Of a stretch of DNA of 64,000 bases, positions 11,213-36,662 are shown piece by piece. The stretch is taken from assembly GCA_035352955.1 (NCBI GenBank), contig DAOPYQ010000002.1, forward strand, positions 140,518 through 204,517, read 5' to 3'. This DNA is from Candidatus Omnitrophota bacterium (GTDB lineage Bacteria > Omnitrophota > Omnitrophia > Omnitrophales > Aquincolibacteriaceae). The position numbers and the translations under genes were made by a program. How positions within the stretch are numbered: position 1 is the first letter of the stretch; the number at the start of each line of letters is the position of its first letter. The notes beneath the pieces were generated by a model, which searched no databases, was not told the origin of the DNA, and saw nothing but the letters and a program-made list of their open reading frames with translations.

Positions 11213-11362
11213 TTGGTCACTTCACCCAAAGAGGATATCGCTTAAAAAATTTATTCGGCGCCGTACCGCTCCGCCACGCTTCAGATCTCTGCGCCGACGA
11301 TCGTTTTTTTCTGAAAAAATGCCCGTCAGCAAGCAAGTCTTCTTCACCGATAATTTCTTTTT

Positions 11363-14474: not shown

Positions 14475-14527
14475 TCTTCTTGTCCTTGTTTTAGCAGAAA
14501 AGGGCCCGCCCCGTTCCACTCAGTAAC

Positions 14528-15355
14528 CTACCCCTGCATTCCCAAAAAGTCCCTCACGCGGTACTTCTCGGCATGGATTTTATCACGGACCCTTTGCCAA
14601 AACGAGCGGTCCGGTCCTTCCTGGAACGGCTCAAAACAAACCGGACGGGCAACAAACCCGCTCTTTTCCACCACCCGAGATAAAAGTCTCTCGATCGCGT
14701 GAGCCAAAGTTCCGTTACGCCGAATCGATACCTCACACGGAAAATCTTCCATACCCAAACCCAATTCATATAAAGGAGCCAAGGCCCTCGGGCGGAACCA
14801 GAACATGGATCCTGCCGGGAAAACGACGGCTTTCGTCGCCGGAAGTTCGAGCCCCAAGCGCCCCGCAAGCACCGAACAGATCTTCCAGTTGTTGCTCCAG
14901 GATTCCTTCTCAAGGCCCCCCCCGAGGATCGGGATCACTTCAGGATAGACCATCCCCAACCGTTCGTTTTCCTCGAACATCCGCAAAATCGCCGCGACTG
15001 TTCCGGCAGACCCGGCGAGATTTTCAAGAAGATAACGTCCCCATTCTTTGAGCCACAAGCGGTGAGGACTCTTTTTGGTGTGGACCTTGAGAACAAGATC
15101 ATAACCGGAATAAATTTCCCCGAATTCGCAGAGGAACGGCGCGATATCAAAACCGCGATTCAGGACGCCCTTCAAGAAGATCTTTTTCCCGGGGAACGCC
15201 TCCGACAAAACGCTTCGGACCTTCTTCACAGAAGCCGCGGGAGCTGACGCGTACAGATCGAATTCCCGGGGAATATTCTTCAAATAGCCGGCGATCATTC
15301 CAGCCTGCTCCTCGTAGAAAAAATGTCCTACGACGGCGATCCTGAAAGGGGTCAT
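14528..15355 (-). CDS. RgpF-like (rhamnan synthesis protein F family) glycosyltransferase domain protein
   Basis: MTPFRIAVVGHFFYEE… resembles the N-terminal domain of the 1203-aa protein (RIAIVVHCYYPE…). Start ATG 15355 forms an ATGA overlap with the upstream gene's stop. Confidence 0.5.
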   Translation of the reverse strand: MTPFRIAVVGHFFYEEQAGMIAGYLKNIPREFDLYASAPAASVKKVRSVLSEAFPGKKIFLKGVLNRGFDIAPFLCEFGEIYSGYDLVLKVHTKKSPHRLWLKEWGRYLLENLAGSAGTVAAILRMFEENERLGMVYPEVIPILGGGLEKESWSNNWKICSVLAGRLGLELPATKAVVFPAGSMFWFRPRALAPLYELGLGMEDFPCEVSIRRNGTLAHAIERLLSRVVEKSGFVARPVCFEPFQEGPDRSFWQRVRDKIHAEKYRVRDFLGMQG

Positions 15356-21800: not shown

Positions 21801-22459
21801 GAGCCCACCAGCATTTCCAGCATGATCTTACGCCACAGGTCCCCTCCGCCGGGCAATCGGCCGTCCCCCTTTTTGGTATGCAATTTGCACACGACCGCAT
21901 ATTTTTTTTGGATCAAGGTGGGGATCAACGACAAAAAGGGACCGATATCCATCCCGCGGTTGGCGCCAAAATAGAAATGAGCTTTGGGAAAAGATTTCGA
22001 TACGGCAGCTCTTACGAGGGCTTCGCGCTCCGAAGGCGCCGTAATGAAAAGATCAAAGCGGTAACGCAACGCCTCCAATTTCGCTCCGATCTGGGGCCAC
22101 AGCTCAGGATAATAACAATGAACCACAATGGCAATCCGCGGCGAGTGGGGCCCCTCTTCCAAAAAACAAGCAGCCTTGCCATTTTCCTCGAAGGCTGCCT
22201 CCTCAATCGAGCAAGGAGTCCGCCCTTCCGCGCGACCGCTGCAAGCATAATGATGAAAAGGGTCTCTACCACTCAACGCAATATCAGGGTTTCTCTCGAG
22301 ATACCAATCTGCATCAAAACGAAGCCCGTGGATCCGGAGGTGGATCTTTGCCCAAAGCATAAGAATTTTGACATAAAGAAACCAAAGGGCGTCTTTCACT
22401 ATGGCCGGTAATGAACCTGTTCCTTTTTTTTCTCCGATCCTCTTATGCCGGTTCTTCAC
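18848..22459 (-). CDS. Giant three-domain glycosyltransferase: N-terminal WY modules, RgpF-like domain, GT2 domain and C-terminal GT4 domain
   Basis: 1203 aa. DADWYLERNPDIALSGRDPFHHYACSGRAEGRTP near the N-terminus. RIAIVVHCYYPELW (RgpF-like). SIVIPAFGEG…ILVDNGSS (GT2). C-terminal FAESFGRSVAEGMAARRPVIAYRGGALPELV (GT4). ATGA overlaps at both ends. Confidence 0.7.
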   Translation of the reverse strand: MKNRHKRIGEKKGTGSLPAIVKDALWFLYVKILMLWAKIHLRIHGLRFDADWYLERNPDIALSGRDPFHHYACSGRAEGRTPCSIEEAAFEENGKAACFLEEGPHSPRIAIVVHCYYPELWPQIGAKLEALRYRFDLFITAPSEREALVRAAVSKSFPKAHFYFGANRGMDIGPFLSLIPTLIQKKYAVVCKLHTKKGDGRLPGGGDLWRKIMLEMLVGSDANFAEAVEAFVKNPTLCMVGPAPLFQSGPRLMYENYQGLKKLAQELYGQTVPKTEWGFFAGTMFWVRPEALEKLSGFADSFLEGQVGEYRMDGRLEHALERFFGLIPVYRNEKVGLLHLRTSRPSDGCLSVIDILSSAGKASTTNVLQQFARLEKDETTIRQSGLFDENYYVQKCESYFHPDTNRVIHYLLYGTHEGLWPNRYFSPNEYRKLNPDVVKRDVEPFVDYLTRGARDRVRFRWRLEDEKRKAPHYPLAVLGGELVPWETVRAVSRDERLVSIVIPAFGEGALTERCVRSILGEGAAVPYEIILVDNGSSAKDRAVFRTLAGSDPRIRLVENERNYHFALGSNIGFRHSRGGTIIFLNNDTIVTPGWLDRLIAPFSDPKVAAVQPRLIYSDGRVQNVGMVFSQWSVIPYPIYQGSRNGQPFLDRSRAFQAVVGACLAVRATDFAAVKGFDPSFVDGHEDIDLCLRLTRGTGRVCWYEATSTVLHDEGRTPGRGLYNLHNRREFFGRWQGKIEPDDTAYYRQDGFEVAGWTVDANDYLKDGVAIHAPVLVGADVPVENKRPECAHPFRFWVGDLSAGDVPCEDSYVPGITALKDGRMSVLLCAHAANKQLFGAERSFLDVLEALSSLDLNVFVTFPSVPGPSYLEEVRKFVSGVYVFRCRLWTRGVATENSVVARFRSIIDFHSIGLVHVNTLMLREPLLAARNAGTVSLMHVREIILEDQPLALQFGLKPREVLKQIHANADFLVANSRKTAEMLGPGKRVFVAPNVVRTDLLDISNTVDPRAIVFGLISSNIRKKGIFDLMEIAKLCEGSVPQAVFMLIGPEDGKDIQRLKKEYQGAKMLGNVRFAGYKETPVAAVSEVNVVLNLSLFAESFGRSVAEGMAARRPVIAYRGGALPELVQDQGSGYLVPFRNIRAVADRVEQFCKNPELIAQFGKAGREIVGNYSLENLAKALDSIYGQVSGRIAGKRTTKAENIR

Positions 22460-24312
22460 GCCTCTTGTTTTCCCTTCACACTAACCGTTTCAAATCCTAA
22501 AGATCTGCATCCCTGAAAGGGCTCGGAAATAACATGTTCAACGGGAACATGTTTATAAGAAAAAACAGGGCACCGTTCCTCTCGCCCTCCTTTTTTCGTC
22601 AGAACAAGATCGATCGTTCCGCTGCCCCATCCGAAAGGGTCCCCGTCAAAAGCGAACCGGTCGGGACTTCTTAGATAAAGACTGGGCCATGCCACCGGTT
22701 TCAAAAATAGCCGAAGCGCGGCACGCCGCCCAAAGATTTTTTCTACAAAACCTCTTTCATCGACGACGCTCGCCGCTAAAACAGTGCTTCCCGCGATAGT
22801 TACGAGAAAATGCTTCGCCCCGCGAGGGATCTTTTTCAGGATCTCCGGATCCCTGACATCCAGCAAAAGATCGTAGCTCTCTTGACCAGCATATCGGACG
22901 GTCAGCACGACACCCTCCGAAAAAACGCTTTCTCCGAGAATTTTTGAGGGGGCGCGAACCGATCCTACGGGTATTCTTTTTTGTTGTCCGTTTTCTGTAA
23001 ACGTTAAAAAAACTCTCCTGAAATCCTCGATCGGGAATGACAGCGGCAAAAACACGACGTTGAACGGATCCGCAGATGCCAAAAGAAAAAAACCTCTGAC
23101 ATTCCGTCGGCCAAGTCGCCCTTCTTTCAGAAAAGGCCTCGCTTGGTCTGCGAATAATTCCGCGACGATTCTTCCTCCCGCGTTGAAAGAAAGCTTTTCA
23201 TAATCGGAAAGCGCCCCCGTAAAACAGCCCCGAGGGGCCTTATTGAGCAAAGGCGTCAATCTCAGGGAAGAAAACCCCCATTTCCCCCTTCCTGTCAGAT
23301 AAGAAAACAGCTCCTCCGCAACGATCCGATTTCCCCATGCATTGGCATGATCAATATGCTCGTTGAAATACAAAAAGGAACCTAAAGAAGAGGGTCCCTG
23401 CGGAGCAAAAAAACTCACGTTCGGCAACGGAGTGAGCTTGCGTAATCCTTGTATCCAGTCTTCCTGAGCTAAAACAATCACATGCTTTGTCTTTGCGGCC
23501 GTTTCCTTAAAAATAGCCGCATAAATAGGCAAAAGTTCTTCCTGGGAGGAACTGGACCATTGATAGTAAAATGGGTTTCGTCTCGAATGAAGATTCGAGG
23601 GCAACACAGCCCGCAAAGCCATGGGCATTCCCTGGTCATACCTCAAATACTGCAGCGGGCACAGGACTTGATTGTAAATTCTGGAAGCCTGGTTACGATC
23701 GCTCCCAAAAACAGACAGAAGGGTAAGCTGGTCATTCTTAAGAATATAGCGCGCATGAAGCGGTCCGTACGAAAAAGGGTGCTGAAAAGAGAGGTCCCTA
23801 TCATAAGGGATGTCATGAATGGTCAGGATCACGCAGTCCAGATCCCGGGAACGGCTGATCAGCTTCCACAACAGAAACTCCTGAAACAATCCGTAGCGGT
23901 TCCCGCCCAAATTAATGACCTTCACACGCGTCAACCCGGCCGCCTTGAACCTTTCTTGAAGAAGTCCCGGATAGGTATAAGCGTCCTGCCCCAGACGCCC
24001 CCCGCTCCGCGTCATTGATCCTCCGAAAATCCCTATCTTGACCGTTCCAGGACCCTCTTGTTCGAGAAGATCCTTAAGATAAGTTGGTTCCATGCTTCCG
24101 TCTTTGGAATCGCCTTGATAGTTGAACCAACCGAGATCGAGATACTCCTGCTGGCTGACGGCGAATTCTTTCCTGAAGGTCGTCGCCAAACTCTCCTGAA
24201 AGACCTTGGGACCCTTTAAACTGCGAAACGCCGCGCGGTATCCGGCGACATACCCCATCCCAAGTAAGGTCACGAGGAGCCCGGCCAGCAATACAGAAAT
24301 AATCTTCTTCAT
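22456..24312 (-). CDS. Membrane-anchored SGNH-like hydrolase/acyltransferase with large C-terminal extension
   Basis: Start at MKKIISVLLAGLLVTLLG (TM/signal). VKIGIFGGSMTRSGG (block I-like GGS) and a DHANAWGNR region. C-terminal ~300 aa have unknown function. Confidence 0.4.
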   Translation of the reverse strand: MKKIISVLLAGLLVTLLGMGYVAGYRAAFRSLKGPKVFQESLATTFRKEFAVSQQEYLDLGWFNYQGDSKDGSMEPTYLKDLLEQEGPGTVKIGIFGGSMTRSGGRLGQDAYTYPGLLQERFKAAGLTRVKVINLGGNRYGLFQEFLLWKLISRSRDLDCVILTIHDIPYDRDLSFQHPFSYGPLHARYILKNDQLTLLSVFGSDRNQASRIYNQVLCPLQYLRYDQGMPMALRAVLPSNLHSRRNPFYYQWSSSSQEELLPIYAAIFKETAAKTKHVIVLAQEDWIQGLRKLTPLPNVSFFAPQGPSSLGSFLYFNEHIDHANAWGNRIVAEELFSYLTGRGKWGFSSLRLTPLLNKAPRGCFTGALSDYEKLSFNAGGRIVAELFADQARPFLKEGRLGRRNVRGFFLLASADPFNVVFLPLSFPIEDFRRVFLTFTENGQQKRIPVGSVRAPSKILGESVFSEGVVLTVRYAGQESYDLLLDVRDPEILKKIPRGAKHFLVTIAGSTVLAASVVDERGFVEKIFGRRAALRLFLKPVAWPSLYLRSPDRFAFDGDPFGWGSGTIDLVLTKKGGREERCPVFSYKHVPVEHVISEPFQGCRSLGFETVSVKGKQEA

Positions 24313-24457
24313 AGAATTCCAAATCAGTTGATCTGATAGATGAAACCGCCCTCCTGAGGGCCGCTTGTGATGATCATAAGGAACAACGTCAGCAAAAAGA
24401 GCGCCATCAAAAGAATAGCGCCCCACAGCACATATTTCCCGAAAGAGATCTTTCCCA

Positions 24458-25438
24458 TTATTTCGTTCCTTGAGAGGAGCCGTTAATGAATTCCCAAGAA
24501 TGCTCGGCGATCAATCGGTGTCCTTCCTTATTGGGATGCGCATCATCACGGGCAACCCAAAGGTCCATGGGCTTTACAATGCCGGAAAAGCGGGGGGCCA
24601 GGTCCAAAACATCGATATGATGGGATCTTAAAAAATCCGCGATCATTTGGTGTTCTTTTTGAAAAGGATAACGGACCAGCTCATGAAGCTCGGGCAGCAA
24701 TACCACCTGCAGTTCGATGTGATTCTTACGGCAGACATCCTGAAGCAAAAGAAAAGCATCCTGAGCACGGGAAAGCCCGGGGTTATTTTTCTGATACAAG
24801 CTGGCATAGTACGCCTGGTATCCTCCGCGAGAAGGAAACAATCTCTCCGCCAAAAGATGCCCGCGGGACCAATAAAGCGTCGCGAGCTGGGAATACCCCA
24901 TGAACCACCATCGGGATTTCCGGGGAGTGATCTCCGCATCATTGATAAAATAAAAAACAACCACTTTGTCGGGCCTGTATTTCAATCCCCTTTCAAGGAA
25001 AAGGTGGACTTCCTGCTCCGTATTATAGTTCCCGGCCCCGAAATTGAGGATCTCGGTCGGTGTGATACGGTTCAATTTTTCTTCCAGAAGACTCTTGAAG
25101 CTGTCCCCCTCTTCGACGCCCCAGCCCAACGTCAGAGAATCTCCGAGCAAAGCGATCCTCCGTTCCGGCCCCCGCGCAACCGTATGCTCCCGGTCCCGAA
25201 GTCCTTCCGAATTGGTCCGGACCTGCACCCCCATCAACTGGAGACTCTTGTCCGGACGGTGGACGTGACCGATCCTGGGATCCGGAGAATCTTTCTTCAA
25301 TTCCAGGGAATAACGGGCCATCTCCACGTCATAGACTGTCCGGGTTTTCAAAAAGACCCGTATGAAAACCTCTCCGGCAACAAGGCAGAGCAATACCAGA
25401 ACACCTATCATGAAAAGATTTTTTAAAAATAGCTTCAT
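24458..25438 (-). CDS. Membrane-anchored SGNH/GDSL hydrolase
   Basis: N-terminal TM. IALLGDSLTLGWG (I), FGAGNYN (II), FYFINDAE (III), DDAHPN (V). Confidence 0.6.
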   Translation of the reverse strand: MKLFLKNLFMIGVLVLLCLVAGEVFIRVFLKTRTVYDVEMARYSLELKKDSPDPRIGHVHRPDKSLQLMGVQVRTNSEGLRDREHTVARGPERRIALLGDSLTLGWGVEEGDSFKSLLEEKLNRITPTEILNFGAGNYNTEQEVHLFLERGLKYRPDKVVVFYFINDAEITPRKSRWWFMGYSQLATLYWSRGHLLAERLFPSRGGYQAYYASLYQKNNPGLSRAQDAFLLLQDVCRKNHIELQVVLLPELHELVRYPFQKEHQMIADFLRSHHIDVLDLAPRFSGIVKPMDLWVARDDAHPNKEGHRLIAEHSWEFINGSSQGTK

Positions 25439-25457: not shown

Positions 25458-27089
25458 TCAGGAATGGATCTTCCGGCGTTCTTTTTTCCCGAACCTTAAA
25501 TAATGCGCTTCCGCTTTTTCTTTCGTGTTGATCCCCGCTCTTTGCAGATCCGGATAGTGACCGACATAGAACTGCCAATCAAAAGAATGAAGTCCATCCC
25601 CGGGATCGATCGTCAAAACCGCTGTAACCGGATCCCCACGGAGCGCCATCCGCAACGGAAAAAGCCCCATAGGCTCCCTCCGCTCGTTGACGATCCGCAA
25701 CACATATTCCGACGAATATTCTTTTTTGATGACCGGAACTTCGTTCAAATCCCAATCCTGGGGATACTGGTATTTGTCCATATAAGGAACAAAAAGGGGC
25801 CGGAAGAATTCCACATCCGCCGGAGTAAACCAGTCCTTCCATCCTCCGTAAGTCTTGCTGCGGACCACCCTCCGCCAGGCAGCGCTCACCTGCGCGTCAG
25901 GATCCACCTTCAATTCCAGAAAATCCTCCAGAGGCCGCACCTTCTTATCCACAAAATCCTCATATTTCATGATAAACGCCGGCCGCAAGAACTCCTGGAC
26001 TTCCTGAAACATCCGAATCCCTTCGGGGATCCGGTGAAGGCGGATGCGCTCTGCCCAAAGGCTTTTTACCGGAACGGAGTGCGGATCTTTTTCTTTCCTG
26101 ACGAGCAAAGTCAGCAGCCGCTGCAAGGCTCCAAGGTTTTCACAGATCAGAAGCGAATCGAACAGCAGATTGCTCAGGATCCTGTCCCGGGGATCCCTCG
26201 TGATCAGCACTTTCTTGTCGAATCCCGCGAACGACGGAAGGTCGAGCCCGGGATTAAAAACGATCTTGGCAAGCACCCCGGAGTCCCGGTCCTTCTCCTC
26301 GGGAATGTATTGATGAGGCTCGAACAGCGCCCGGGCATCCGCCGGCATCCCGGATTTCACGGCAAAAAAGAGAGCCGTGGTCCCCGATTTGCTTTGACCG
26401 ACCAGCAAGATCTTCGGAACGCGGGATCGGCTGGCCGCCAACGCGGGATCGATCACTTCGTGGAATAAATTTCCGTAGACCTTCCGCTCGATCGCCGCCC
26501 ATCGCGGATTTTGATCGTACATTCTTTTGATGTCCTGGGGGCTGAAGCACCGCAAGACCACGCTTTCCGCACTCACGTATCCGGTGCCGAGAAAATCCTT
26601 GGCTGCATGCAACGCGATATCCGCTCCGCGGTTCAACCGTATTTCCCGTATCTTGATCTTGACAGAATCGGGGATTGAAATGAACTTCTGCAGGGTCTTG
26701 ATAAAATCCTCAGCAAGATACTCCACCCGCAACCAATGATCAATCCCCGAATCCAGGAACGGTGCCAGCACCTGATCGGCAGACGCCTTCCCGGTCATTC
26801 CGACAAGACCTTCCGTGATCCGCTCCCGGTCGATCTTCTGAAGATGATCCCGCCGGTACAAATGGTTCCAACGGCTCACAAGCCACATCGGCAACCGCCG
26901 GATGTTCAGGATTCTTGGCTTGCCGGCGCAAAGATCCGGATGATCCGAAAAGAATTTGTGTTTATCGGGATCTTCCTTGCCGTGGGCCAACAGAATATCC
27001 TTGAGCCCTAGAAGATCGAACATGGCCTTCGTGCTGTCGCCGCCCGTTTTTCCCAGATGTCCCCAGCAAAATCTTTCCGTAATGAACAT
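25458..27089 (-). CDS. Di-domain sulfotransferase with C-terminal WY..PDL..HY module
   Basis: N-terminal GHLGKTGGDST matches the 5'-PSB KTGG(T/S) motif of carbohydrate sulfotransferases (HS6ST-like). Second domain LLVGQSKSGTTALF (5'-PSB PKSGTT-like) plus ITRDPRDRILS (3'-PB RDP(R/K)D). C-terminus FDWQFYVGHYPDLQRAGINTKEKAEAHYLRFG. Confidence 0.65.
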   Translation of the reverse strand: MFITERFCWGHLGKTGGDSTKAMFDLLGLKDILLAHGKEDPDKHKFFSDHPDLCAGKPRILNIRRLPMWLVSRWNHLYRRDHLQKIDRERITEGLVGMTGKASADQVLAPFLDSGIDHWLRVEYLAEDFIKTLQKFISIPDSVKIKIREIRLNRGADIALHAAKDFLGTGYVSAESVVLRCFSPQDIKRMYDQNPRWAAIERKVYGNLFHEVIDPALAASRSRVPKILLVGQSKSGTTALFFAVKSGMPADARALFEPHQYIPEEKDRDSGVLAKIVFNPGLDLPSFAGFDKKVLITRDPRDRILSNLLFDSLLICENLGALQRLLTLLVRKEKDPHSVPVKSLWAERIRLHRIPEGIRMFQEVQEFLRPAFIMKYEDFVDKKVRPLEDFLELKVDPDAQVSAAWRRVVRSKTYGGWKDWFTPADVEFFRPLFVPYMDKYQYPQDWDLNEVPVIKKEYSSEYVLRIVNERREPMGLFPLRMALRGDPVTAVLTIDPGDGLHSFDWQFYVGHYPDLQRAGINTKEKAEAHYLRFGKKERRKIHS

Positions 27090-27109
27090 ACCCGATCCTT
27101 GACCGTCGT

Positions 27110-30100
27110 TCAGGCGTTAGCCGGAACGGAACTCCCGCATTGTTTTTCAACCGTTCCGCGCGGCGGCCAAGCAAGCCGATAATCCGCGCTATCAAGCGTC
27201 AAATTGGGATTGTAGGCAGGATCCTTCAACAGCAGATCCCCCCAGGTTTTTTTCATGTAATCACACTCGGAAATAAACCGCGTTTGCGTCTCCGGAGAAC
27301 GATCGTTCCCGCGCGTCGCGGCCTCCCTGTGCCAAAGCTCCGCATACGGCGTCCAGACGTTCCGATATCCCGCTTCACGAATGCGAATGCAAAGGTCTAC
27401 ATCGTTATAAGCAATGGGAAGATCGTATTCATTAAATCCTCCCATCCTCTCGAACAGAGATTTCCGGATCATAAGGCAGGCCGCCGTCACGGCCGAAAAA
27501 GACTGCAGCAGCTCCGCCCGGCCGAGATAACCGGGCGCCCCGCGCCGCAACCCGCGATGAGAATGTGAAGCGATCCCGCCAAGCCCGAGAATGACACCCC
27601 CGTGCTGGAGGGTACGATCGAGATACCACAACCTCGCCCCGACCGCGCCCACCCCGGGCTGAACTGCCAGGCTCACAAGCTCCGAGAGCCATCCGGAAGA
27701 GATCACTTCGATATCATTGTTGAGAAAACAGACCAATTCTCCGGCGGCAGCCCGGACGGCCGCGTTGTTGAGCGCCGAATAATTAAAAGGCCTCCCGTCA
27801 CGGATCACCCGGATTTTTTTGTTGTGCGCAAGATGCTCAAGATACCGAAGCGTTCCGGGATCGTCCGAACCGTTATCAATGATAAGAATCTCATAATGGG
27901 AATAGAGTGTTTTCCGAAGAATACTTTTGACGCATTTTTGGATCAAGGGTAACCCGTTCCGTGTAAGAATCATCAAGCTCACAAACGGTAAGGGAGCCGG
28001 AAGATCGTAACGCACACGGTACCCGTGATCTTTCATCATCTTCGCGCGGGCCCCGATCTTCCGCCTCTGAAGAAATTCATTTAAGGCCTTTTCTCCGGCT
28101 AGGCGGGCATAGGGCTTGGACCCTCCGGATCTCGCGGCCTCGCTCGCCTTATGAATACGCCAATGATAGAGCACCTGCGGGATATGCCGGATCTTGTCGC
28201 CGCCGATCACCTCCAGACAACGCAAGGCCAGATCATAGTCTTGGGATCCTTCCATGCCGACCCGGAGCCCTCCGATCTCGCGGAGCAGTTGCGTTTGGTA
28301 AACCCCGAGATGAGAAATCATGTTATGCGACAGGAACAGATCATAATTCCAGTCGCTTTTAAAATAAGGCTCCACCCGCCGCGATTCTTCATCGATCTTG
28401 TCTTCGTCGGAATAGATCAGACAAGTTTCGGGGTGCTGTTGAAGAACCTCCGCGACCCGGAACAGGGCGCACTCGGACAGCAGATCATCATGATCAAGCA
28501 AAGCAACCCATTTCCCTTCAGCCAGTTGCAGAGCGCTGTTGGACGCGGCTGAAATGTGACCGTTCTTTTCGCGAAAGACGACCTTGATGCGCGGGTCTTT
28601 TTTGATATAGCGTTCCAAAAGCGTCCGGACCTCGGGATCCGTGGATGCGTCGTCGGCAATGCAGAGTTCCCAGTCGGGATAGATCTGGCTCCGCACAGAT
28701 TCGATCGCTTCCTGGAGCCAGAGGATCTTCGGGTTATAGACAGGCATCAAAACAGAAAGCAGGGGGCGGAACTTGAACGCTTCGGCCGCACGACGCATCC
28801 GCCCGCGCGTTTCGTCGGTCAGCGTATCGTACAAAGCGATCCAGCGGCCGTAACCGTACACATCCCAGGTCATGTCCTCAAAGGTCCGTCCCTCTTTTTT
28901 CCCCTTCCGGAGATAGTGCAACAGCGGATTTTCCCCGGAAGCCACAACATCGGGATAATCTTTCAGATACTTGCCGCCGTCAAAACGAAGGCTTGGAGAA
29001 CGCCCTTCGGTCCCTCCGATCGTCAGATAATGTTCGAGGGGATCCCTGCCGGCCCGGGCAACGTCTGAATAGGTTTTCAAATACCATTCGCGATCGAAAA
29101 ACCCCGAATATTTCACGCAATGCATGTCGGAAAGATTTTGCAAGAAGGGGTCTCCCAAAGCCCCGTAGATCCGTAACGCGAGATTTCTGAGCTTGCCGGG
29201 CCGCAGCCGGTTGATCCCCATCAACAACGGACACAACTTCTTTCCCTGCGGAAACGGCCGGTACCCTTTCTTTTTCCCGTCACGCAGATAATGCTCCAAC
29301 GGATTGACCCCGGCCCCGGCAACTTCCGGATATTCTTTCAGATACCACACGCCGTCAAAATATGGCCCCGGCAGACGGCCTTCGCGCCAACCGTGCGTAA
29401 GATAATGTTCCAAGGGATCTCTTTTGGCACGGGCCACATCGGGATATTTTGTGAGATACCATTCCCCGTCAAAAAAACCGGAGCGCTGAATGACCTCTGT
29501 GTGAGAAAGTCCCCATCCCATCGTTTTACCGAACCAGACGCCAAGCCTTTTCATCCACGCCGGAACCCAACGCCCCGCGACCGTGAAAAAATACCAATCC
29601 TCCGAAGCCCGGATCGCTTGTATTTCGTCCCGAAGACTCCGGACTTCCTGATCGCTTTTCGCCGCGGCCGATTCAAACTCTACCGCTCTTTGTTGTTGTT
29701 CGGCGGCGGCTTGCTGGTAGAAGCAAAGATGTTTCTTAAGATAGGCGCCATCGATCCCCCAGCTCAAAAGATCTTCCGCCATACGCGGGGACCGGGTACA
29801 TAATCTTTCATACTCGCCTCTCTTGGACGCGCAACCCGAGGACAAAACCGAACGGATCCGTTCCCAATGATATCGGTAAGCGGCCGTCACTTCTTCGGAA
29901 AGACGGATAGGAACCGGCACCTTTTCGATCCCCGCCAGTTGTCCCCATGAATCCAGAAAATGTTTTTCCGGCGTCTCTTTCTGCCCGATCGTCCCGAGAA
30001 AACTCTGATATTTGTGAGCGGGATACGGCGGAATCATGATTGCCGGGATCCCGTAGGAAACGGCCGTGATGAATCCGTGCAGTGAATTACCAAAATAACC

Positions 30101-30907
30101 GGCGGCATGGGCGATCAACCCGGCCGCGCGCCGGACCGAACCGGGATGGGGGATCGTCACGCAATCCCTGAAATGCGCCGCAAGACGTTCATACAGCGCG
30201 TTTTCCATGATCCACGGCGTCAACGAAAGCAGGACAGGGCGGGCGCGGCGGAGAGAAAGAACCCGTTCAATGCCTTTCCGGATCGCATCCCCCTGAGACA
30301 AAGAGCACTGTCCATTGATCTCGAAAATAAAATAGGTCCCGTCGATCTCCCGGGGATGCTTGGGCCACATTTGCGAGATCCCAAGCGCCGAATCGGGCGT
30401 CACGCGGATCTCACGCCCGGCGGCAAAGTCAAAGAGATACCGGGTGCTCTCTTCATCGCGAACTGAAAGATACTCCGAAACCTTCAGGCAATGCCGGACA
30501 AATTCTACCGAAACTTCGTCGACTGCCCACGGGCATCCCGGCGCGTTCCAGGCTAAAGGAACGGAAAGACGGGACGCCATCACCCCGGCCCCCAGCCACA
30601 ATCCCGGTAAAGCGGCCACGGACGCCATCTCATTTTGCGCCCAGGAACCGATCCTCCAGGGGACAGTCTGGAGAATATCCCCGCCGCCGATCAGGATCCC
30701 GTCCCAGACCTTATCCTTCGCTTTTTCGAAGGAAAGGATCCGGCAGGCATCCTTCCAGGGAGGCGCCGCATCCTCTGGAGCAATGTGGATCAGCGAAAAA
30801 TCCTTCCCTAAAAAATGCTCCGCAATGTGCGGGAGCAACAGATCGCCGTAACTGTCGTGATTAAAAGCTCCCAGATGGGCGATGGTCTTCATGGTTGGAT
30901 CTTCCAT
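27110..30907 (-). CDS. Giant multidomain enzyme: polysaccharide pyruvyl transferase domain, four tandem WY..PDV..HY..G..EGR modules and two GT2 glycosyltransferase domains
   Basis: 1265 aa. N-terminal HLGAFNHDSYGDLLLPHI…ILIGGGDILQ (PS_pyruv_trans/CsaB-like). GFFDGEWYLTKYPDVARAKRDPLEHYLTHGWREGRLPG, plus three further copies. LLSVLMPVYNPK…IADDASTD (GT2 #1). VSLMILTRNG…IIDNGSDD (GT2 #2). Confidence 0.7.
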   Translation of the reverse strand: MEDPTMKTIAHLGAFNHDSYGDLLLPHIAEHFLGKDFSLIHIAPEDAAPPWKDACRILSFEKAKDKVWDGILIGGGDILQTVPWRIGSWAQNEMASVAALPGLWLGAGVMASRLSVPLAWNAPGCPWAVDEVSVEFVRHCLKVSEYLSVRDEESTRYLFDFAAGREIRVTPDSALGISQMWPKHPREIDGTYFIFEINGQCSLSQGDAIRKGIERVLSLRRARPVLLSLTPWIMENALYERLAAHFRDCVTIPHPGSVRRAAGLIAHAAGYFGNSLHGFITAVSYGIPAIMIPPYPAHKYQSFLGTIGQKETPEKHFLDSWGQLAGIEKVPVPIRLSEEVTAAYRYHWERIRSVLSSGCASKRGEYERLCTRSPRMAEDLLSWGIDGAYLKKHLCFYQQAAAEQQQRAVEFESAAAKSDQEVRSLRDEIQAIRASEDWYFFTVAGRWVPAWMKRLGVWFGKTMGWGLSHTEVIQRSGFFDGEWYLTKYPDVARAKRDPLEHYLTHGWREGRLPGPYFDGVWYLKEYPEVAGAGVNPLEHYLRDGKKKGYRPFPQGKKLCPLLMGINRLRPGKLRNLALRIYGALGDPFLQNLSDMHCVKYSGFFDREWYLKTYSDVARAGRDPLEHYLTIGGTEGRSPSLRFDGGKYLKDYPDVVASGENPLLHYLRKGKKEGRTFEDMTWDVYGYGRWIALYDTLTDETRGRMRRAAEAFKFRPLLSVLMPVYNPKILWLQEAIESVRSQIYPDWELCIADDASTDPEVRTLLERYIKKDPRIKVVFREKNGHISAASNSALQLAEGKWVALLDHDDLLSECALFRVAEVLQQHPETCLIYSDEDKIDEESRRVEPYFKSDWNYDLFLSHNMISHLGVYQTQLLREIGGLRVGMEGSQDYDLALRCLEVIGGDKIRHIPQVLYHWRIHKASEAARSGGSKPYARLAGEKALNEFLQRRKIGARAKMMKDHGYRVRYDLPAPLPFVSLMILTRNGLPLIQKCVKSILRKTLYSHYEILIIDNGSDDPGTLRYLEHLAHNKKIRVIRDGRPFNYSALNNAAVRAAAGELVCFLNNDIEVISSGWLSELVSLAVQPGVGAVGARLWYLDRTLQHGGVILGLGGIASHSHRGLRRGAPGYLGRAELLQSFSAVTAACLMIRKSLFERMGGFNEYDLPIAYNDVDLCIRIREAGYRNVWTPYAELWHREAATRGNDRSPETQTRFISECDYMKKTWGDLLLKDPAYNPNLTLDSADYRLAWPPRGTVEKQCGSSVPANA

Positions 30908-30958
30908 TTCATGGGCTTTATTGGCGTCGCAAAATTCCTGAACAATGTGAGGGGCATT

Positions 30959-32881
30959 CTAGCCCAAAAATCCGCCCCGGGCGAGATAACGTATGATCTG
31001 GTCGGCGGCAATATCCGCGGACAGAACCGCCGTATCCAAGAGTAAGGCGGGAGCTTCAGGGACTTCATAGGGAGCATTCACGCCGGTGAACTCCGTGATC
31101 AAGCCGGCGCGGGCCTTTTCATAGAGGCCCTTCGGGTCTCGCTTCTCGCAGACTTCCACCGGCGCATCAAGAAAAATCTCTATGAATCGGTCCCGTCCGA
31201 TGATCTCCCCGGCTTTGGCCCGGTCCTCCCGGTACGGCGAGATAAACGCCGTGATCACGATCACGCCGGCTTCATTTAAAAGCCGTGCCACTTCGGCCAC
31301 ACGACGGATATTCTCGCTCCGGTCTTGCGGCGAGAACCCGAGGTCCCGATTAAGTCCATGCCTCACATTGTCGCCGTCCAGGACGTAACACAAATGCCCT
31401 GCCGCCATGAGCTTCTTCTCAACTTCATAAGCTACGGTAGATTTCCCGGAACCACTCAGCCCGGTCAGCCACAATGTCGCCGGTTTTTGTTTCAGGAGCC
31501 GTTCCCGCTCCTGATGGGGAACGTCCCCTTCCTGTCGGTGGATCAAAGCGCTTTGAGAAACAGCCGTATCGTCCGGACGAACCATGGAAGACAACCGTCC
31601 CCGTTCAATGATCATACCGGCCGCGACCGTTGCGTGCGTCATCGGATCGATCAGGATGAAACTTCCGGTCTGCCGGTTCCGGGTATATTCATCGCAAAAC
31701 ACGGACCGGAAACACTGCACGGTCACCCGACCGATCTCGTTCAGTTTCAGTTCCGCCGCCTTCTTGCGGCTCAAGGTCCCGGGATCGATCCGGAACGGAA
31801 GACGCGTGATCGAACACTTAAAAAGTTGCGTGGTGTGTTTGATCCAGTAGACTTTTCCGAGAGCAAGCGGCGACGGATCCATCCAGACCAGGATCGATTC
31901 GATTTCGCGGCGGATCTGCGGCAAGTTCCCCGAATGGACCAGCATGTCGCCGCGCGTGATATCGATCTCGTCTTCGAGCGTGACCGTGACCGACTGCGGC
32001 GCGAAAGCGTACGGCACCGCGCCGTCCGGACCGCGAATCGAACGGATGCGCGTCCGCCTCTGGGACGGAAGCGCGAGAACTTCATCCCCTTTCCGGATCA
32101 CTCCCGACGCGATCCGCCCGGCATAACCGCGAAAATCCTGCCCCGGCCTTAACACATATTGCACGGGGAACCGGAGATCGATCAGGTTCCGGTCGCTTAA
32201 GACATGTACGTTCTCAAGATGGTTCAAAAGCGCCGGGCCGTCATACCATTTCATGTGCCGGCTTTTCCGGACGACATTATCGCCTTTCAACGCGCTAACC
32301 GGAATATAGACCGTGTCCGGAACATTGAGCTTTTCCGCGAATCCTTCGAAATCGCGTGCGATCTTCCGGAAAACTTTTTCCGAATAACCCACGAGGTCCA
32401 TTTTATTGACCGCGATCACCATATGTTTGATGCCGAGGAGCGACGCGATGAACGCGTGCCGTTTGGATTGGAGAAGCACGCCCCGCCGCGCATCGATCAG
32501 AATAACGGCAAGGTCCGCCGTGGACGCGCCGGTCGCCATGTTCCGCGTGTACTGTTCGTGCCCCGGCGTGTCCGCAATAATAAAATGCCGTTGGGGGGTT
32601 GAAAAATAGCGGTAGGCAACGTCGATCGTGATCGCCTGCTCGCGTTCGGCTTTCAGACCGTCCATCACGAGCGAAAGATCGAGGGCTTCACGCTTCAGCC
32701 GCGCGGAATCTTTCCGAACCGCGGCCAGCTGGTCCTCATAAAGACCATGCGCCTCGTAAAGCAACCGGCCGATCAGCGTGGATTTTCCATCATCCACGCT
32801 CCCTGCCGTCGAAAACCGCAAGAGATCCGCTTCCCGGCCTTGCTTAAGAACCTTTTCTTTTCTGCGGGAGGCCTTTTTCAT
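30959..32881 (-). CDS. cysNC: Bifunctional sulfate adenylyltransferase subunit 1 / adenylylsulfate (APS) kinase
   Basis: N-terminal GTPase GSVDDGKSTLIGRLL…DTPGHEQY. C-terminal APS kinase P-loop LWLTGLSGSGKSTVA. TGATG overlap with cysD. Confidence 0.9.
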   Translation of the reverse strand: MKKASRRKEKVLKQGREADLLRFSTAGSVDDGKSTLIGRLLYEAHGLYEDQLAAVRKDSARLKREALDLSLVMDGLKAEREQAITIDVAYRYFSTPQRHFIIADTPGHEQYTRNMATGASTADLAVILIDARRGVLLQSKRHAFIASLLGIKHMVIAVNKMDLVGYSEKVFRKIARDFEGFAEKLNVPDTVYIPVSALKGDNVVRKSRHMKWYDGPALLNHLENVHVLSDRNLIDLRFPVQYVLRPGQDFRGYAGRIASGVIRKGDEVLALPSQRRTRIRSIRGPDGAVPYAFAPQSVTVTLEDEIDITRGDMLVHSGNLPQIRREIESILVWMDPSPLALGKVYWIKHTTQLFKCSITRLPFRIDPGTLSRKKAAELKLNEIGRVTVQCFRSVFCDEYTRNRQTGSFILIDPMTHATVAAGMIIERGRLSSMVRPDDTAVSQSALIHRQEGDVPHQERERLLKQKPATLWLTGLSGSGKSTVAYEVEKKLMAAGHLCYVLDGDNVRHGLNRDLGFSPQDRSENIRRVAEVARLLNEAGVIVITAFISPYREDRAKAGEIIGRDRFIEIFLDAPVEVCEKRDPKGLYEKARAGLITEFTGVNAPYEVPEAPALLLDTAVLSADIAADQIIRYLARGGFLG

Positions 32882-33786
32882 CAGAAATATCCTTCCCGTT
32901 TTTTCTGTTCCATGGACGCATCCTGGTCATGGTCGATCAGCCGCGTGATCCGCTCGGAATGATTCACAGCCATGATCTCTTCGATGATCGCGGGCACCGT
33001 CGCCGCCGTCGACCGGACCGCTCCCGTACAGGGATAGCACCCTAGCGTCCGGAACCGGCACATGACTTTTTGCGGCTTTTCACCCTTCCGCAGAGGGACG
33101 GGCCCATCCAGCGGGATCAGCTGTCCTTCCCGGACGATCATCTCGCGAAGCTTGGCAAAATACATGGGAACCACGGGGATCTTTTCCTGATGGATGTACT
33201 GCCAGACATCCAGTTCGATCCAGTTGGAAAGCGGGAACACGCGAATGCTTTCCCCCTGATTGACCTTCGTGTTGTAGAGGTTCCAAAGCTCCGGCCGCTG
33301 GTTCTTCGGGTCCCATTGCCCGAATTCATCGCGAAAGGAAAACACGCGTTCTTTCGCGCGGGATTTTTCTTCATCCCGCCGAGCGCCGCCGAACGCGGCG
33401 TCGAATCCGCCTTCCTTGATCGCGTTCAGAAGCGCCTGCGTCTTCAGGAGCGAGCAACATTTCACCGTCCCCAGGTCCCAGGGATTCGCCCCCTGATCGA
33501 GCGCTTCGCGAAAAATATAGACGCGGAGATCGGCGCCGATCTTCCGGGCGAACCGGTCGCGGAAAGCGATCATCTCCTTGAATTTCATCGTGGTGTCGAC
33601 ATGCAAAAGCGGGAATGGGATCGGCCCGGGAGCGAAGGCTTTCTGCGCGAGACGGACCATGACAGAAGAATCTTTCCCGACCGAATAGAGCATGACCGGG
33701 CGCTCAAAAGACGCGGCCACTTCCCGCAGGATGTGAATACTCTCCGCCTCAAGAAGCCGGAGTTTGCTGAGCCGATAGTTTTCCAT
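32881..33786 (-). CDS. cysD: Sulfate adenylyltransferase subunit 2
   Basis: PAPS-reductase-fold motif [17 protein letters not shown]; 301 aa; translationally coupled to cysNC. Confidence 0.9.
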
Positions 33787-33815
33787 GATCTCTTACGAGC
33801 CGGAGGAGAGTTCGG

Positions 33816-34676
33816 TTAGAAACTTTTCATTGTCTTGATCAACGTAAAAACCCCGAGAATAATGGTCAGCGTTGCGATAAGTCCCTTGAGGAGCTTCGGG
33901 CTCATGATCTTGACGTTCTTCGCGGCAAGCGGCGTCGCGCAAACCGCCCCGCTGATGATCATGGCCGCCACTCGCCAATCGATGCTGTTTTTTGCCGTCA
34001 GAAGATAGATCGTGACTCCCAAAGCGCAAGTGATGCCCTCCGCCATGGACGTGATCCCGACAGCGTTCTTTCCTTCCACGCCGGAAAGCATTTGTCCGCT
34101 CACCACCAAAGGCCCGTATCCTCCGCCCGTTAGCCCCTTGTTGAAAGACGCCAGCAATCCGAGCCCGACGATCTTTTTCCAGGAATACGCGAATTGTTTA
34201 TTGAAACAGACCACGATCAGGATCCCCATCGCGATCACCATGACACTGATATAGAGGGAAGTCCATTTTTGCGGCAAAACCTTCGCCGTAAAGACCGCGC
34301 CGGACGATCCGAGAATCGTCGCGGACAAGAGCAGAAGAACGACTTTCAGATGAGAAGAGATCTGGATCCCGTACGTGTGGTGATCGGGATTCACCGGCCC
34401 CGGAAGCCGGAGACTGTCTTTCATACGCTGAAAATCCAGGACCTTGAAATGAAAATCCACGTTCCCTTCCCGATGGTGGAACGCGCCCGAAAGAACCCCC
34501 GTGATCAGCTCGGAAAGCAGGACTGCCGGGACGATCTGGATGGGCGTGAAACCGAAAAGCATCAGGACCGGCGTCATGGTCGTACCGTATCCCATCCCTA
34601 GCGTGGAGTCCATGTATTCGCAGCAAAATGCAATGAGAACTATAACGGCGATCATTTGCAATGTTATGTCCGGCAT
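33816..34676 (-). CDS. TSUP (TauE/SafE) family anion permease, probable sulfate/sulfite transporter
   Basis: 8 TM helices with an internal duplication and Gly-rich helices typical of PF01925. Sits immediately upstream of cysD in the same orientation. Confidence 0.65.
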   Translation of the reverse strand: MPDITLQMIAVIVLIAFCCEYMDSTLGMGYGTTMTPVLMLFGFTPIQIVPAVLLSELITGVLSGAFHHREGNVDFHFKVLDFQRMKDSLRLPGPVNPDHHTYGIQISSHLKVVLLLLSATILGSSGAVFTAKVLPQKWTSLYISVMVIAMGILIVVCFNKQFAYSWKKIVGLGLLASFNKGLTGGGYGPLVVSGQMLSGVEGKNAVGITSMAEGITCALGVTIYLLTAKNSIDWRVAAMIISGAVCATPLAAKNVKIMSPKLLKGLIATLTIILGVFTLIKTMKSF

Positions 34677-34736: not shown

Positions 34737-36476
34737 TCAATCGCTGGAGAGACAGGTCTGGTTCTTGCCGGCAGCTTTGGCTTTGAGGAGGGCTTCCTGG
34801 GCGCGCTCGATGACTTTGTTGGGATTCCGTTCACCCGGCTTCAGGACGGAAACACCGGCGCTGACGCTCACGGAAAAACCCTTGGGGCCGCCCTCGAACG
34901 TCACTTTCTCGATCGCCTTCCGGATACGCTCGGCGATCCCGAATGTCGCCGTCGCAAGATTAAATCCCACGAGCAAAACGATGAATTCTTCATCTCCGTA
35001 CCTTCCTGCCACATCCGGAAGGGCACGTCCCTTCGTGCGGATCGAGTTGTGAATCACTTCGGCAACTTTCTTGAGAACAATGTTTCCCGTCCGGTAACCG
35101 TAAGTATCATTGATCTGTTTAAAATCATCCAGATCGAACAGGATCACCGCGAAAGGCTTCCGGAACGTCTGGGCATAATGCATGGCCTGCGCAAGGAACG
35201 TGGACACATAGCGCATGACATAAAGCCCCGTCAGCTCATCCCGCAACGCAAGATTCAGAAAATAGAGCCGTTCCCGGTACTCAGCGACCCGGGTCAGGAG
35301 AAAGGACAAAAGGAAAAAAGCAAAAACCAGCGTCAGCGGCACCGCCACCCCGAGCCACAATCCGCTCACCGCAAAAACCAGGTACGAGAAAACGATCCAG
35401 ACAAGTCCCAGAACGATCCCCCCGGTCACGGAAAAAACGAGCCGAAAAGGAATGAACAGCCATCCCGCTAGGATCCCGAGGACAAGCAACAGGAAGGCCT
35501 GGAACCAGGGCGACGGCACCCGGATGAATTGCCGGGTCAAGATCGTATTGATGATGTTGCCCACGACGCCGATCCCCGGGCTGCTTTGATCCAAGGGGGT
35601 CATTTTGCTGTCAGAAACCGTTAACCCGATCAAACAGATCTTGCCTTTAATATCTTCCGCACCGATCGAAGCGGGCTGCCCCTTCGTGCCCAGCGCGTAA
35701 CTGTTGAGGATATCGCTGTAGGAATAATAGCCGACGACATCGTTCCATTTTTTCGCCCAATGGATCATCAGGTTGTTCCTGGCATCGCGTGGAAAATCAC
35801 ATTTTTCGGGCGTTGGAACCGGCTTGCCGAGATAATCGTAAGCGACCAGGATCCCGAGGTGCGGCACGAGTTTCTGGTTGAATTTTACAAAAGGATAGAT
35901 CCGGCGAATGACATTGTCCGCGTCCTGGCTGTAATTGATGTGCCCGATCCCCTTGACCTTCCCGCTGAACACCGCGTCAGACTGGTTCACATAATAGTAA
36001 TTCTTGAATCCTTCGGATTCGAAAGAGATCGGCAAGTAGACATTCGGCGTCTTTTGGAGCTCCTCGACAAGCGCCTGATCATCCTCAGCCGCGCCCCCTC
36101 CCTGTGTCAGGAAAAGATTAAAAACGATCGCCTTCGCTCCCCATTCCCTCAGGATCCGCGTCATGGCCGCGTAATACCTTTTCGGCCAGGGGAAAGCCTT
36201 AACGGTCTGGAGGCTTTTTTTGTCGATCCCGATGTAAACGATCCCGGGATCCGTGGCCGGCTGGGGCTGGCGTTTCAAATACTGATCATAAAAATAATTA
36301 TCGACGGGCTGGAAAAAAGGGGCCTTGGAAAAGTTCAGGCAAAGGGCCAGGATCAGGACGAACCCGAGGAGTTGGATCAGCCGGAGCGGCGTGAAGAAAA
36401 CGACAAGCCGGCGCAGAGGCTCCGTCGCGGAACCCCGACGCTTCTGGACAAGACCTTCCGGTGTTTTCGACATAGA
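34737..36476 (-). CDS. CHASE2 sensor domain / GGDEF-domain membrane protein (diguanylate cyclase-like, non-canonical GDEEF active-site motif)
   Basis: Periplasmic CHASE2-like region followed by TM helices. C-terminal GGDEF domain with …DVAGRYGDEEFIVLL (RYG-D-EEF instead of RYGG(D/E)EF). Start taken at MSKTPEG (36476). Confidence 0.65.
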   Translation of the reverse strand, partial: SMSKTPEGLVQKRRGSATEPLRRLVVFFTPLRLIQLLGFVLILALCLNFSKAPFFQPVDNYFYDQYLKRQPQPATDPGIVYIGIDKKSLQTVKAFPWPKRYYAAMTRILREWGAKAIVFNLFLTQGGGAAEDDQALVEELQKTPNVYLPISFESEGFKNYYYVNQSDAVFSGKVKGIGHINYSQDADNVIRRIYPFVKFNQKLVPHLGILVAYDYLGKPVPTPEKCDFPRDARNNLMIHWAKKWNDVVGYYSYSDILNSYALGTKGQPASIGAEDIKGKICLIGLTVSDSKMTPLDQSSPGIGVVGNIINTILTRQFIRVPSPWFQAFLLLVLGILAGWLFIPFRLVFSVTGGIVLGLVWIVFSYLVFAVSGLWLGVAVPLTLVFAFFLLSFLLTRVAEYRERLYFLNLALRDELTGLYVMRYVSTFLAQAMHYAQTFRKPFAVILFDLDDFKQINDTYGYRTGNIVLKKVAEVIHNSIRTKGRALPDVAGRYGDEEFIVLLVGFNLATATFGIAERIRKAIEKVTFEGGPKGFSVSVSAGVSVLKPGERNPNKVIERAQEALLKAKAAGKNQTCLSSD

Positions 36477-36662
36477 CACGCCCTTATGGTAAAACTCTAA
36501 GCAGAACAGGTCAATAGAAGTAACGACCATCTACGGCCAAACCTGACAAAAAATCTCTTCATCTTCTGAAAAAACCACGGCTCAGAGCCTCGTCTGAAAA
36601 ATATCCGGTAACCTTTTAAGATTCTCACGGTATAATCCTTTTCCCTAAAGGAGGGATTAATC

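Follow-up and report, generated by a model that had tools for sequence, protein, structure and literature searches.

To our knowledge, sulfated polysaccharides were long held to be rare in bacteria outside the cyanobacteria, and there are few gene clusters for which the structure of the product has been verified. In rhizobia, a second ATP sulfurylase and adenosine 5'-phosphosulfate (APS) kinase, encoded by nodPQ, supply 3'-phosphoadenosine 5'-phosphosulfate (PAPS) to a nearby carbohydrate sulfotransferase, NodH, for Nod-factor sulfation, NodP being a homologue of CysD and NodQ a CysNC fusion; the mycobacterial CysDNC, together with the Stf enzymes, is another classical precedent. In Vibrio sp. 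KMM 8419, for which the structure of the sulfated capsule has been solved, an ABC-type cluster carries second copies of cysC, cysN and cysD along with sulfotransferases, and the authors of that study regard PAPS genes and sulfotransferases in one cluster as a hallmark of the synthesis of sulfated polysaccharides (PMC11641403). The synechan (xss) cluster of Synechocystis PCC 6803 encodes XssA and XssE, sulfotransferases of different subfamilies, and many glycosyltransferases (GTs), and its product was shown genetically to be a sulfated exopolysaccharide (EPS), in a paper the text of which makes no mention of PAPS or sulfate adenylyltransferase (PMC8205485). Here, we analyze a 64-kb stretch of DNA from an uncultured Candidatus Omnitrophota bacterium (hereafter, the window), in which a TauE-cysD-cysNC gene module and the gene for a 543-aa, two-domain sulfotransferase-like protein likely form the sulfation arm of a ~30-kb cell-surface glycan biosynthesis locus.

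Clusters of this type are already known in other bacteria, and the rarity attributed to them in a preliminary description of this DNA is not established, given the published, structure-verified Vibrio cluster with cysNDC and sulfotransferases (PMC11641403). What is less ordinary here is that the TauE-headed module is conserved across a candidate phylum, that two sulfotransferase modules are fused in tandem, and that the N-terminal one belongs to an unnamed family. At the level of genes, the resemblance to the Vibrio locus consists in PAPS genes and sulfotransferases within a glycan cluster that includes an ABC transporter; unlike that gammaproteobacterial cluster, the one in Omnitrophota has cysN and cysC fused, a TauE permease in front, a fused MsbA/HepA-like half-transporter rather than KpsMT, and a two-domain sulfotransferase fusion with one domain of an unnamed family. 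The locus shares with synechan the presence of two distinct sulfotransferases in one glycan cluster, whereas xss employs the Wzx/Wzy pathway and encodes its sulfotransferases as two individual proteins, both recognized by Pfam. The nodPQ/nodH system differs in several respects: in rhizobia, sulfate is added to a lipo-chitooligosaccharide signal rather than to a polymer, NodH has a single domain, and the system includes neither a permease gene nor glycan export machinery. A full-text literature search recovered no paper that substantively links Omnitrophota with sulfotransferases.

The module and the gene for the 543-aa protein are codirectional, on the minus strand, within the glycosyltransferase cluster, as originally described (Table 1). 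CysD matches NF003587 at 467 bits (cutoff 195) and TIGR02039 at 452 bits (cutoff 396.6), in addition to PF01507; CysNC matches NF004035 at 919.5 bits (cutoff 715) and TIGR02034 at 568 bits (cutoff 336), with its APS-kinase part (aa 467-615) recovered by PF01583 at 2e-66; and TauE, which is hydrophobic throughout and a multi-pass membrane protein, matches PF01925 in two stretches at 101.6 bits against a cutoff of 32.6. All three Pfam assignments anticipated for these proteins (PF01507, PF01583 and PF01925) are thus borne out. The GTPase motifs of CysNC (G1, GSVDDGKST; G3, DTPGH; G4, NKMD) and those of its APS kinase (P-loop, GLSGSGKST; DGDN, LDGDNVR; FISP, AFISPYR) are intact and, therefore, PAPS, not merely APS, is the expected product. 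The stop codon of cysD and the start codon of cysNC have one base in common (ttcTGATGaaa), so that the two form a translationally coupled pair, and the cysD start follows the TauE stop at a distance of 29 nt; the TGATG overlap and the placement of the pair directly downstream of the TSUP permease accordingly hold as first reported. The distance of 2.5 kb given between the gene for the 543-aa protein and cysD-cysNC has to be corrected: the cysNC stop (30959) is 3.87 kb from the start of that gene (27089), and the interval is filled by a single gene for a 1265-aa protein.

The TSUP family, to which TauE belongs, is named for sulfite export and also includes sulfoacetate exporters. In Omnitrophota, TauE orthologues at 75-88% identity are plentiful, and in two further contigs (L011 and L012), TauE is likewise directly upstream of cysD-cysNC. 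In L012, genes for an anion porin and an Rrf2 regulator come before the module, which accords with a role in sulfate uptake. The TauE-family protein TK06_RS10770 of Pseudomonas fluorescens restores growth of an Escherichia coli delta-cysA strain and is, by this token, a sulfate importer, and the Acidovorax homologue Ac3H11_578 is encoded in a sulfate-assimilation operon (PMC11535334); the likeness of our permease to these transporters lies in TSUP family membership and sulfate-activation gene context. Because of the conserved adjacency to cysD-cysNC and the published TauE-family sulfate importer, the best reading appears to be that this permease would import sulfate and feed CysDN, both the substrate and the direction of transport being deduced from this context. 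The gene directly upstream of TauE in the window encodes a diguanylate cyclase, which hints at possible control of the glycan by cyclic di-GMP; this CHASE2-GGDEF gene is absent upstream of TauE in L011 and L012, that is, the adjacency is not conserved.

The open reading frame (ORF) for the 543-aa protein encodes GKTGGDST (aa 13-20), SKSGTT (aa 233-238) and RDPRD (aa 298-302), so that the motifs KTGG(D/T)S, xKSGTT and RDPRD, from which two sulfotransferase-like domains had been proposed, are all present. We do not consider these short motifs to be due to chance because profile, structure and gene-neighborhood evidence points the same way. The protein is 100% identical to an NCBI entry, as TauE likewise matches an entry from an Omnitrophota MAG (metagenome-assembled genome). 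Only 13 database homologues of the protein were detected, most of them covering aa 226-472 and several with extra Sulfotransfer_3/1 domains. Scanned whole, the protein scores 20.9 bits with Sulfotransfer_1, under the gathering score of 22, and has no match in NCBIfam; a phmmer comparison of the whole protein with the PDB returned designer PPR-repeat matches, which were rejected as spurious, and nothing else.

When the C-terminal domain (aa 223-475) is scanned alone, Sulfotransfer_1 (PF00685) reaches 25.3 bits, over the cutoff of 22. A profile of the C-domain family, compared with the PDB, recovers SULT2A8 at E 4.6e-6 as well as SULT2A1, and most of the 30 listed matches are sulfotransferases. 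The alignment spans the RDPRD 3'-phosphate site and the RxxRxKxxGxWKxWFT motif, with RVVRSKTYGGWKDWFT of the C-domain aligned to RKGxxGDWKNhFT of the SULTs; the residues concerned are the K234-SGTT loop, R298-DPRD...S306 and R410...W417KDW420FT. Across the 11-member family alignment (A3), GxxKSGTTAL, (I/V)RDPRDxxxS, KYEDFV and RVxRTKxxGxWxxWFTxxD are invariant or nearly so: the G, T and T of the loop are kept in at least 90% of the members, K234 is conserved, and alignment columns R76, D80 and S84 (R298, D302 and S306) are invariant. We accept the C-domain as a sulfotransferase-family domain with intact PAPS-binding residues. A further member of this family, P0012 (550 aa, from a Candidatus Magasanikbacteria MAG), is apparently split by an inserted Sulfotransfer_2 domain, with query-like segments at aa 2-137 and 422-521 and PF03567 at aa 173-363, which gives it a domain-in-domain look.

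The N-terminal domain presents a different picture. It has no Pfam match even at E<=1 and none in NCBIfam or PHROGs, and a comparison of 66 aligned family members with Pfam at E<=0.01 yielded nothing bar one stray match; the sulfotransferase assignment by hidden Markov models (HMMs) thus stands for the C-domain alone. The domain is nevertheless far from isolated: an exhaustive HMMER search of 1.84 billion representatives recovered 319 relatives (clusters at 50% identity) at E<=1e-3, 128 of them at E<=1e-10. Most are stand-alone proteins of ~200 aa, and the long members include fusions with Sulfotransfer_3/1, GT2 and S-adenosylmethionine (SAM) methyltransferase domains. Members are known from Omnitrophota and Actinomycetota MAGs and from unassigned metagenome contigs, one of these possibly phage, and the ten that we checked are unnamed or labeled "hypothetical protein", with one fusion named for its methyltransferase half only. 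Comparison of the N-domain sequence profile with the PDB gave a serpin match at E 0.026, rejected as noise, and no other.

The family consensus reads MVIGxxFxWxHxPKTGGDxT ... KH ... LNIRRLPxWxLS ... DxWLRxExLxxDF ... FT...LYxxNPxWAxxExxxYG, with R64, L66 and E201 invariant and H11, H44, P67, S72, R121 and E123 nearly so; S72 is kept in at least 90% of the 66 members and K14 in at least 90% of the 12 closest ones. The AlphaFold2 (AF2) model built from the family alignment is confident (predicted local distance difference test, pLDDT, 90.3; predicted template modeling score 0.87). In a Foldseek search of the PDB with this model, sulfotransferases occupy 12 of the 15 top ranks (best E 2e-3, probability 0.99) and, among viral predicted structures, small phage and giant-virus "sulfotransferase family" proteins rank first. 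Profile-profile comparison of the N- and C-domain families with hhalign is colinear over 172 columns (E 4e-4, probability 35%) and pairs PKTGG with PKSGT, IRRLP with VRDPRD, WLRxE with KYED, and WFT with WFT. From this colinear alignment, K14 is predicted to belong to the 5'-phosphosulfate loop, and R64 and S72 to the 3'-phosphate site. Against the PAPS-dependent sulfotransferase superfamily at large (Sulfotransfer_1/2/3; SULT7A1 5x2b, HS6ST 5t03, Stf9 2z6v, TPST 5wri), the N-domain is small, ~200 aa compared with the typical 250-300 aa, and is covered by no Pfam, NCBIfam or PHROGs model, whereas the C-domain is marginal to Sulfotransfer_1. The evidence supports a sulfotransferase fold for both domains, unrelated-looking as they are; that both are active, and on different sites, appears to us an evenly balanced proposition.

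The 543-aa protein also has a short tail with a motif that other enzymes of the locus share. A ~35-aa motif, F[DN]xxWYLxxNPD[VIL]xxSGxDPxxHYxxxGxxEGR, recurs in four different enzymes, at 28867-28992 (aa 640-681 of the 1265-aa protein), 25461-25589 (a degenerate copy in the tail of the 543-aa protein), 22199-22324 (aa 46-87 of a 1203-aa protein) and 17766-17885 (in a 362-aa GT), and is found in the related contig L006 as well. By BLAST, aa 496-540 of the 543-aa protein match the N-terminus of protein P0004, and no Pfam family name was returned for the motif. It might tether the enzymes of the locus to a common partner.

Linkage of PAPS genes with glycan clusters recurs in contigs L001, L005, L007 and L011. 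In L001, which encodes the C-domain homologue P0003, the order is cysD-cysNC-GT2-GT4-two-domain sulfotransferase-GT92-ABC-RgpF-TPR-GT, and the sulfotransferase is another two-domain combination, namely, a C-domain-like module with Sulfotransfer_3. Between the window (6078-36530) and L001 (1-19787), identity is 84% for CysD, 79% for CysNC, 73% for the ABC exporter, 57% for RgpF, 53% for the TPR protein, 71% for GT4, 70% for GT2 and 81% for the plus-strand GT2, and the middle is non-homologous; conserved flanks with a variable middle resemble the pattern of serotype-variable surface-glycan loci. The C-domain homologue P0002 (L005/L006) comes with cysNC, sugar-nucleotide genes, GTs including a Sulfotransfer_3+GT2 fusion, and then an ABC gene, and P0013 is followed by two further sulfotransferase genes. 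In L011, the order is Wzy/GT2-TauE-cysD-cysNC-Wzm-Wzt-...-Sulfotransfer_3; in L012, it is Rrf2-anion porin-TauE-cysD-cysNC, followed by unrelated genes; and a Planctomycetota genome has Rrf2-TauE without cys genes. TauE-cysD-cysNC is a conserved Omnitrophota unit that usually, not always, adjoins variable glycan and sulfotransferase genes.

The N-domain family is found in such surroundings, too. P0014, a stand-alone protein with 49% identity to the N-domain, is encoded in another Omnitrophota MAG (L007) in a cluster that is headed by cysD-cysNC and also holds Capsule_synth, a Sulfotransfer_2 gene and many GTs. The gene for P0016, also stand-alone, belongs to a dTDP-rhamnose/RgpF cluster (L008, L010), where it follows an APS-kinase gene after 6 nt. 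In this region (L008 7373-8718, L010 2439-3784), the APS kinase is fused to DUF2061, and a muramidase/VanY protein gene and a 2065-aa ORF adjoin; the stretch may be a phage or phage-like region with its own sulfation genes. P0162 (500 aa; N-domain and SAM methyltransferase, annotated as methyltransferase only) comes from a Solirubrobacterales MAG (L015), where its neighbors, in an O-antigen-type cluster at 10001-16463, are a WsaF-type GT and Wzm/Wzt, including a Wzt_C domain, and where no PAPS genes occur within 10 kb. The gene for P0017 is at a contig end and its context is uninformative. Methyl or phosphate caps terminate O-antigen chains in WbdD systems. The L015 layout is reminiscent of such chain terminators, and the chain might there be capped at its end by sulfate or methyl; speculatively, in ABC-transporter-dependent pathways, some members of the N-domain family may add a terminal sulfate that controls chain length.

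Because this surface-sugar cluster has its own putative sulfate importer, PAPS enzymes and a double-headed sulfotransferase, the glycan is very probably sulfated. In the scheme that we propose, the TauE-family permease would bring in sulfate; CysD and the GTPase part of CysNC, to judge by strong family matches and intact motifs, would adenylate it to APS, which the fused APS kinase would convert to PAPS; cytoplasmic multidomain glycosyltransferases would assemble an oligo- or polysaccharide on a lipid carrier; the 543-aa protein would use PAPS to sulfate hydroxyl groups of the sugars, probably at two different acceptor sites; further decorations would probably be added by a pyruvyl transferase domain and by several SGNH proteins; and the HepA/MsbA/PglK-like ABC exporter would carry the product over the inner membrane. 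The resulting glycan, at the surface or outside the cell, would be strongly anionic. In our judgment, it is likely that the locus makes a sulfated glycan and that the PAPS for it comes from the adjacent genes, and this central prediction of the preliminary description is supported by the PAPS genes, the sulfotransferase domains and the recurring linkage.

Several observations weigh against this scheme. The organism is uncultured, and the enzyme activities, like the sulfated glycan itself, are predicted from genes. The Pfam score of the C-domain is marginal, and no catalytic base is assigned in either domain, K43-H44 of the N-domain being a candidate. A single-sequence AF2 model of the full 543-aa protein reached a pLDDT of only 32.8, so that structure prediction, expected to illuminate both domains, did so for the N-domain and not for the whole protein. 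TauE, cysD and cysNC aside, there is no sulfur-metabolism gene in the 64-kb window, that is, no cysH, sulfite reductase or cysQ to show another use of PAPS. Instead of EPS, it could be lipopolysaccharide (LPS), a glycolipid or a glycoprotein that accepts the sulfate; kdsB and a lipid A acyltransferase gene are nearby. Finally, the L012 module, which lacks downstream glycan genes, speaks against dedication of the PAPS genes to the glycan.

On this last point, TauE-cysD-cysNC, conceivably the sole sulfate-activation system of the cell, might be a general assimilatory operon that sits next to the glycan cluster and fills a common PAPS pool, in which case the glycan would still be sulfated; we give this possibility appreciable, though clearly minority, weight. 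The module is far more conserved in Omnitrophota (75-88% identity) than the sulfotransferase (13 homologues), in L012 it has genes for an Rrf2 regulator and an anion porin on one side and unrelated genes on the other, and the single CysDNC of Mycobacterium tuberculosis serves both assimilation and sulfolipid synthesis. However, in five loci (the window, L001, L005, L007 and L011), the cys genes of the module directly adjoin GT or sulfotransferase genes (cysD is visible in four, as the L005 contig starts inside cysNC); none of the five has cysH or a gene for sulfite reductase or cysteine synthase next to it; and the fused, motif-intact APS kinase would make PAPS, the sulfotransferase donor. Even so, we put dedication of these genes in the nodPQ sense at well short of an even chance. 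As for the 543-aa protein, it is unlikely, in our estimate, that only one domain is a working sulfotransferase and the other, most likely the N-domain, a non-catalytic module binding 3'-phosphoadenosine 5'-phosphate (PAP) or glycan, or a P-loop-type transferase of a different kind, for instance, a sugar kinase. As would suit such a module, the named sulfotransferase HMMs all fail to match the N-domain family, and hhalign comparison of the family with one Sulfotransfer_2 protein of L007 is not significant (probability 0.5%); yet the N-domain loop, with the family consensus HxPKTGGDxT, is not a Walker A (GxxxxGK[ST]), the invariant R64 and conserved S72 have the spacing of the sulfotransferase 3'-phosphate site, and the fold alignment extends over 160-181 residues with sulfotransferases compared with ~108 with kinases. 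Moreover, ~200-aa stand-alone members exist in PAPS-gene contexts and, therefore, the family is autonomous, not an accessory module. The origin from unrelated kinases that had been named as an example of what would refute a sulfotransferase assignment is not borne out by the loop, the profiles or the fold.

The nature of the product is a separate matter: the core claim of a sulfated glycan is unaffected by product type. Instead of being a secreted polysaccharide, the sulfated molecule might belong to LPS (O-antigen or core), to a glycolipid or to a glycoprotein, or the sulfate might be a non-reducing-end cap that ends chain growth, which together we consider less likely than not. The flanking kdsB and lipid A acyltransferase genes, the MsbA-, PglK- and HepA-like character of the exporter, and the conserved flank genes for a TMTC/PMT-like GT-C with TPR repeats and a polyprenyl-phosphate hexose synthase-like GT2 would be compatible with such products, as would L015, in which the N-domain-family/methyltransferase fusion is next to Wzm and Wzt (Wzt_C), in a layout reminiscent of WbdD-type terminators. 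Conversely, among the genes identified in the window, none encodes an O-antigen ligase, Wzx, Wzy, Wza or Wzc, and the ABC exporter there has no Wzt_C domain.

If the glycan is sulfated as we propose, the locus and its Omnitrophota relatives would extend glycan sulfation to an uncultured, globally distributed phylum the cell-surface biology of which is little known, and a coat so variable and so strongly anionic could matter for how cells attach to hosts or prey, bind metals and resist phages. As a new lead, the unannotated family of compact sulfotransferases that the N-domain represents stands out. With somewhat less than even confidence, we suggest that it may define a widespread, unrecognized family of compact (~200 aa) glycan sulfotransferases, in which case glycan sulfation would be under-counted in present-day annotation of metagenomes and Omnitrophota would be habitually coated with variable sulfated glycans made using the conserved TauE-cysD-cysNC. 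With a profile built from the N-domain alignment (A1), hundreds of "hypothetical proteins" would become recognizable as candidate glycan sulfotransferases, and the family would supply new compact enzymes for the engineering of sulfated polysaccharides.

Table 1. Genes and domains of the glycan locus and its surroundings in the 64-kb window, listed from the upstream end of the minus-strand genes.
Feature	Position	Strand	Matches and remarks
CHASE2-GGDEF diguanylate cyclase	34737-36530	-	PF05226 153 bits; PF00990 123 bits; 60 nt upstream of TauE
TauE/SafE (TSUP) membrane permease, 286 aa	33816-34676	-	PF01925
cysD, sulfate adenylyltransferase small subunit, 301 aa	32881-33786	-	NF003587, TIGR02039, PF01507
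cysNC, fused sulfate adenylyltransferase GTPase subunit and APS kinase, 640 aa	30959-32881	-	NF004035, TIGR02034, PF01583
1265-aa protein, polysaccharide pyruvyl transferase and two GT2	27110-30907	-	PF04230, PF00535, PF13641
543-aa two-domain sulfotransferase-like protein	25458-27089	-	
N-terminal domain of the 543-aa protein, aa 1-222	26424-27089	-	compact sulfotransferase-fold, unannotated family
C-terminal sulfotransferase domain of the 543-aa protein, aa 223-480	25650-26423	-	Sulfotransfer_1
C-terminal tail of the 543-aa protein, aa 501-543	25461-25589	-	degenerate short-motif copy
GDSL/SGNH protein, 326 aa	24458-25438	-	PF13472 54 bits; 19 nt downstream of the 543-aa gene
656-aa protein, no family match	22456-24426	-	
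1203-aa RgpF+GT2+GT4 protein	18848-22459	-	
362-aa GT-like protein	17763-18851	-	
SGNH/AlgX-like protein	16659-17729	-	
417-aa protein, no family match	15352-16605	-	
RgpF protein	14528-15427	-	
ABC exporter, fused transmembrane and nucleotide-binding domains (TMD-NBD), 621 aa	12654-14519	-	PF00664 and PF00005
KdsB	11363-12103	-	
Membrane and TPR protein	9365-11212	-	
GT4	8226-9521	-	
GT2	7235-8254	-	
Polyprenyl-phosphate hexose synthase-like GT2	6078-7211	+	

The glycan locus occupies ~30 kb of the window, from ~36.5 kb down to 7.2 kb, with every substantial ORF on the minus strand (Table 1); from the GGDEF gene to the GDSL gene, successive genes overlap or are separated by gaps of 19-60 nt, and a scan of 24-38 kb for promoters and terminators gave nothing interpretable. 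The 1265-aa protein combines a pyruvyl transferase domain (PF04230, 79 bits, aa 20-292, 29972-30907) with GT2 domains at aa 718-878 and 976-1197 (PF00535, 163 bits in two stretches; PF13641, 68 bits), and its copy of the NPDV...HY...EGR motif is at aa 640-681. Two clear GDSL/SGNH proteins are encoded in the locus (24458-25438 and 16659-17729), the 326-aa one being a candidate glycan O-acetyl transferase or esterase, and the glycan is probably O-acetylated and pyruvylated besides being sulfated. The 656- and 417-aa proteins carry GGS-type N-terminal motifs and may also be SGNH or AlgJ-like proteins.

The best NCBIfam match of the 621-aa ABC exporter is HepA_fam_ABC at 408 bits, below the cutoff of that model, and the protein resembles HepA, MsbA and PglK; its gene is a conserved flank gene, 73% identical in L001 and 69% in L005, and would be the glycan exporter or flippase. 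The TPR protein has ~10 N-terminal transmembrane segments, an FDDEEY loop and TPR repeats, and looks like a GT-C of the TMTC/PMT/ArnT type, and the divergent plus-strand GT2 resembles the polyprenyl-phosphate hexose synthases AglJ, PpgS and ArnC; the pair, kept in L001 too, points to a possible extra periplasmic glycosylation step. Just outside the glycan locus, at 2228-5830 on the minus strand, there is a gene for a 1200-aa autotransporter with PATR repeats and a beta-domain.

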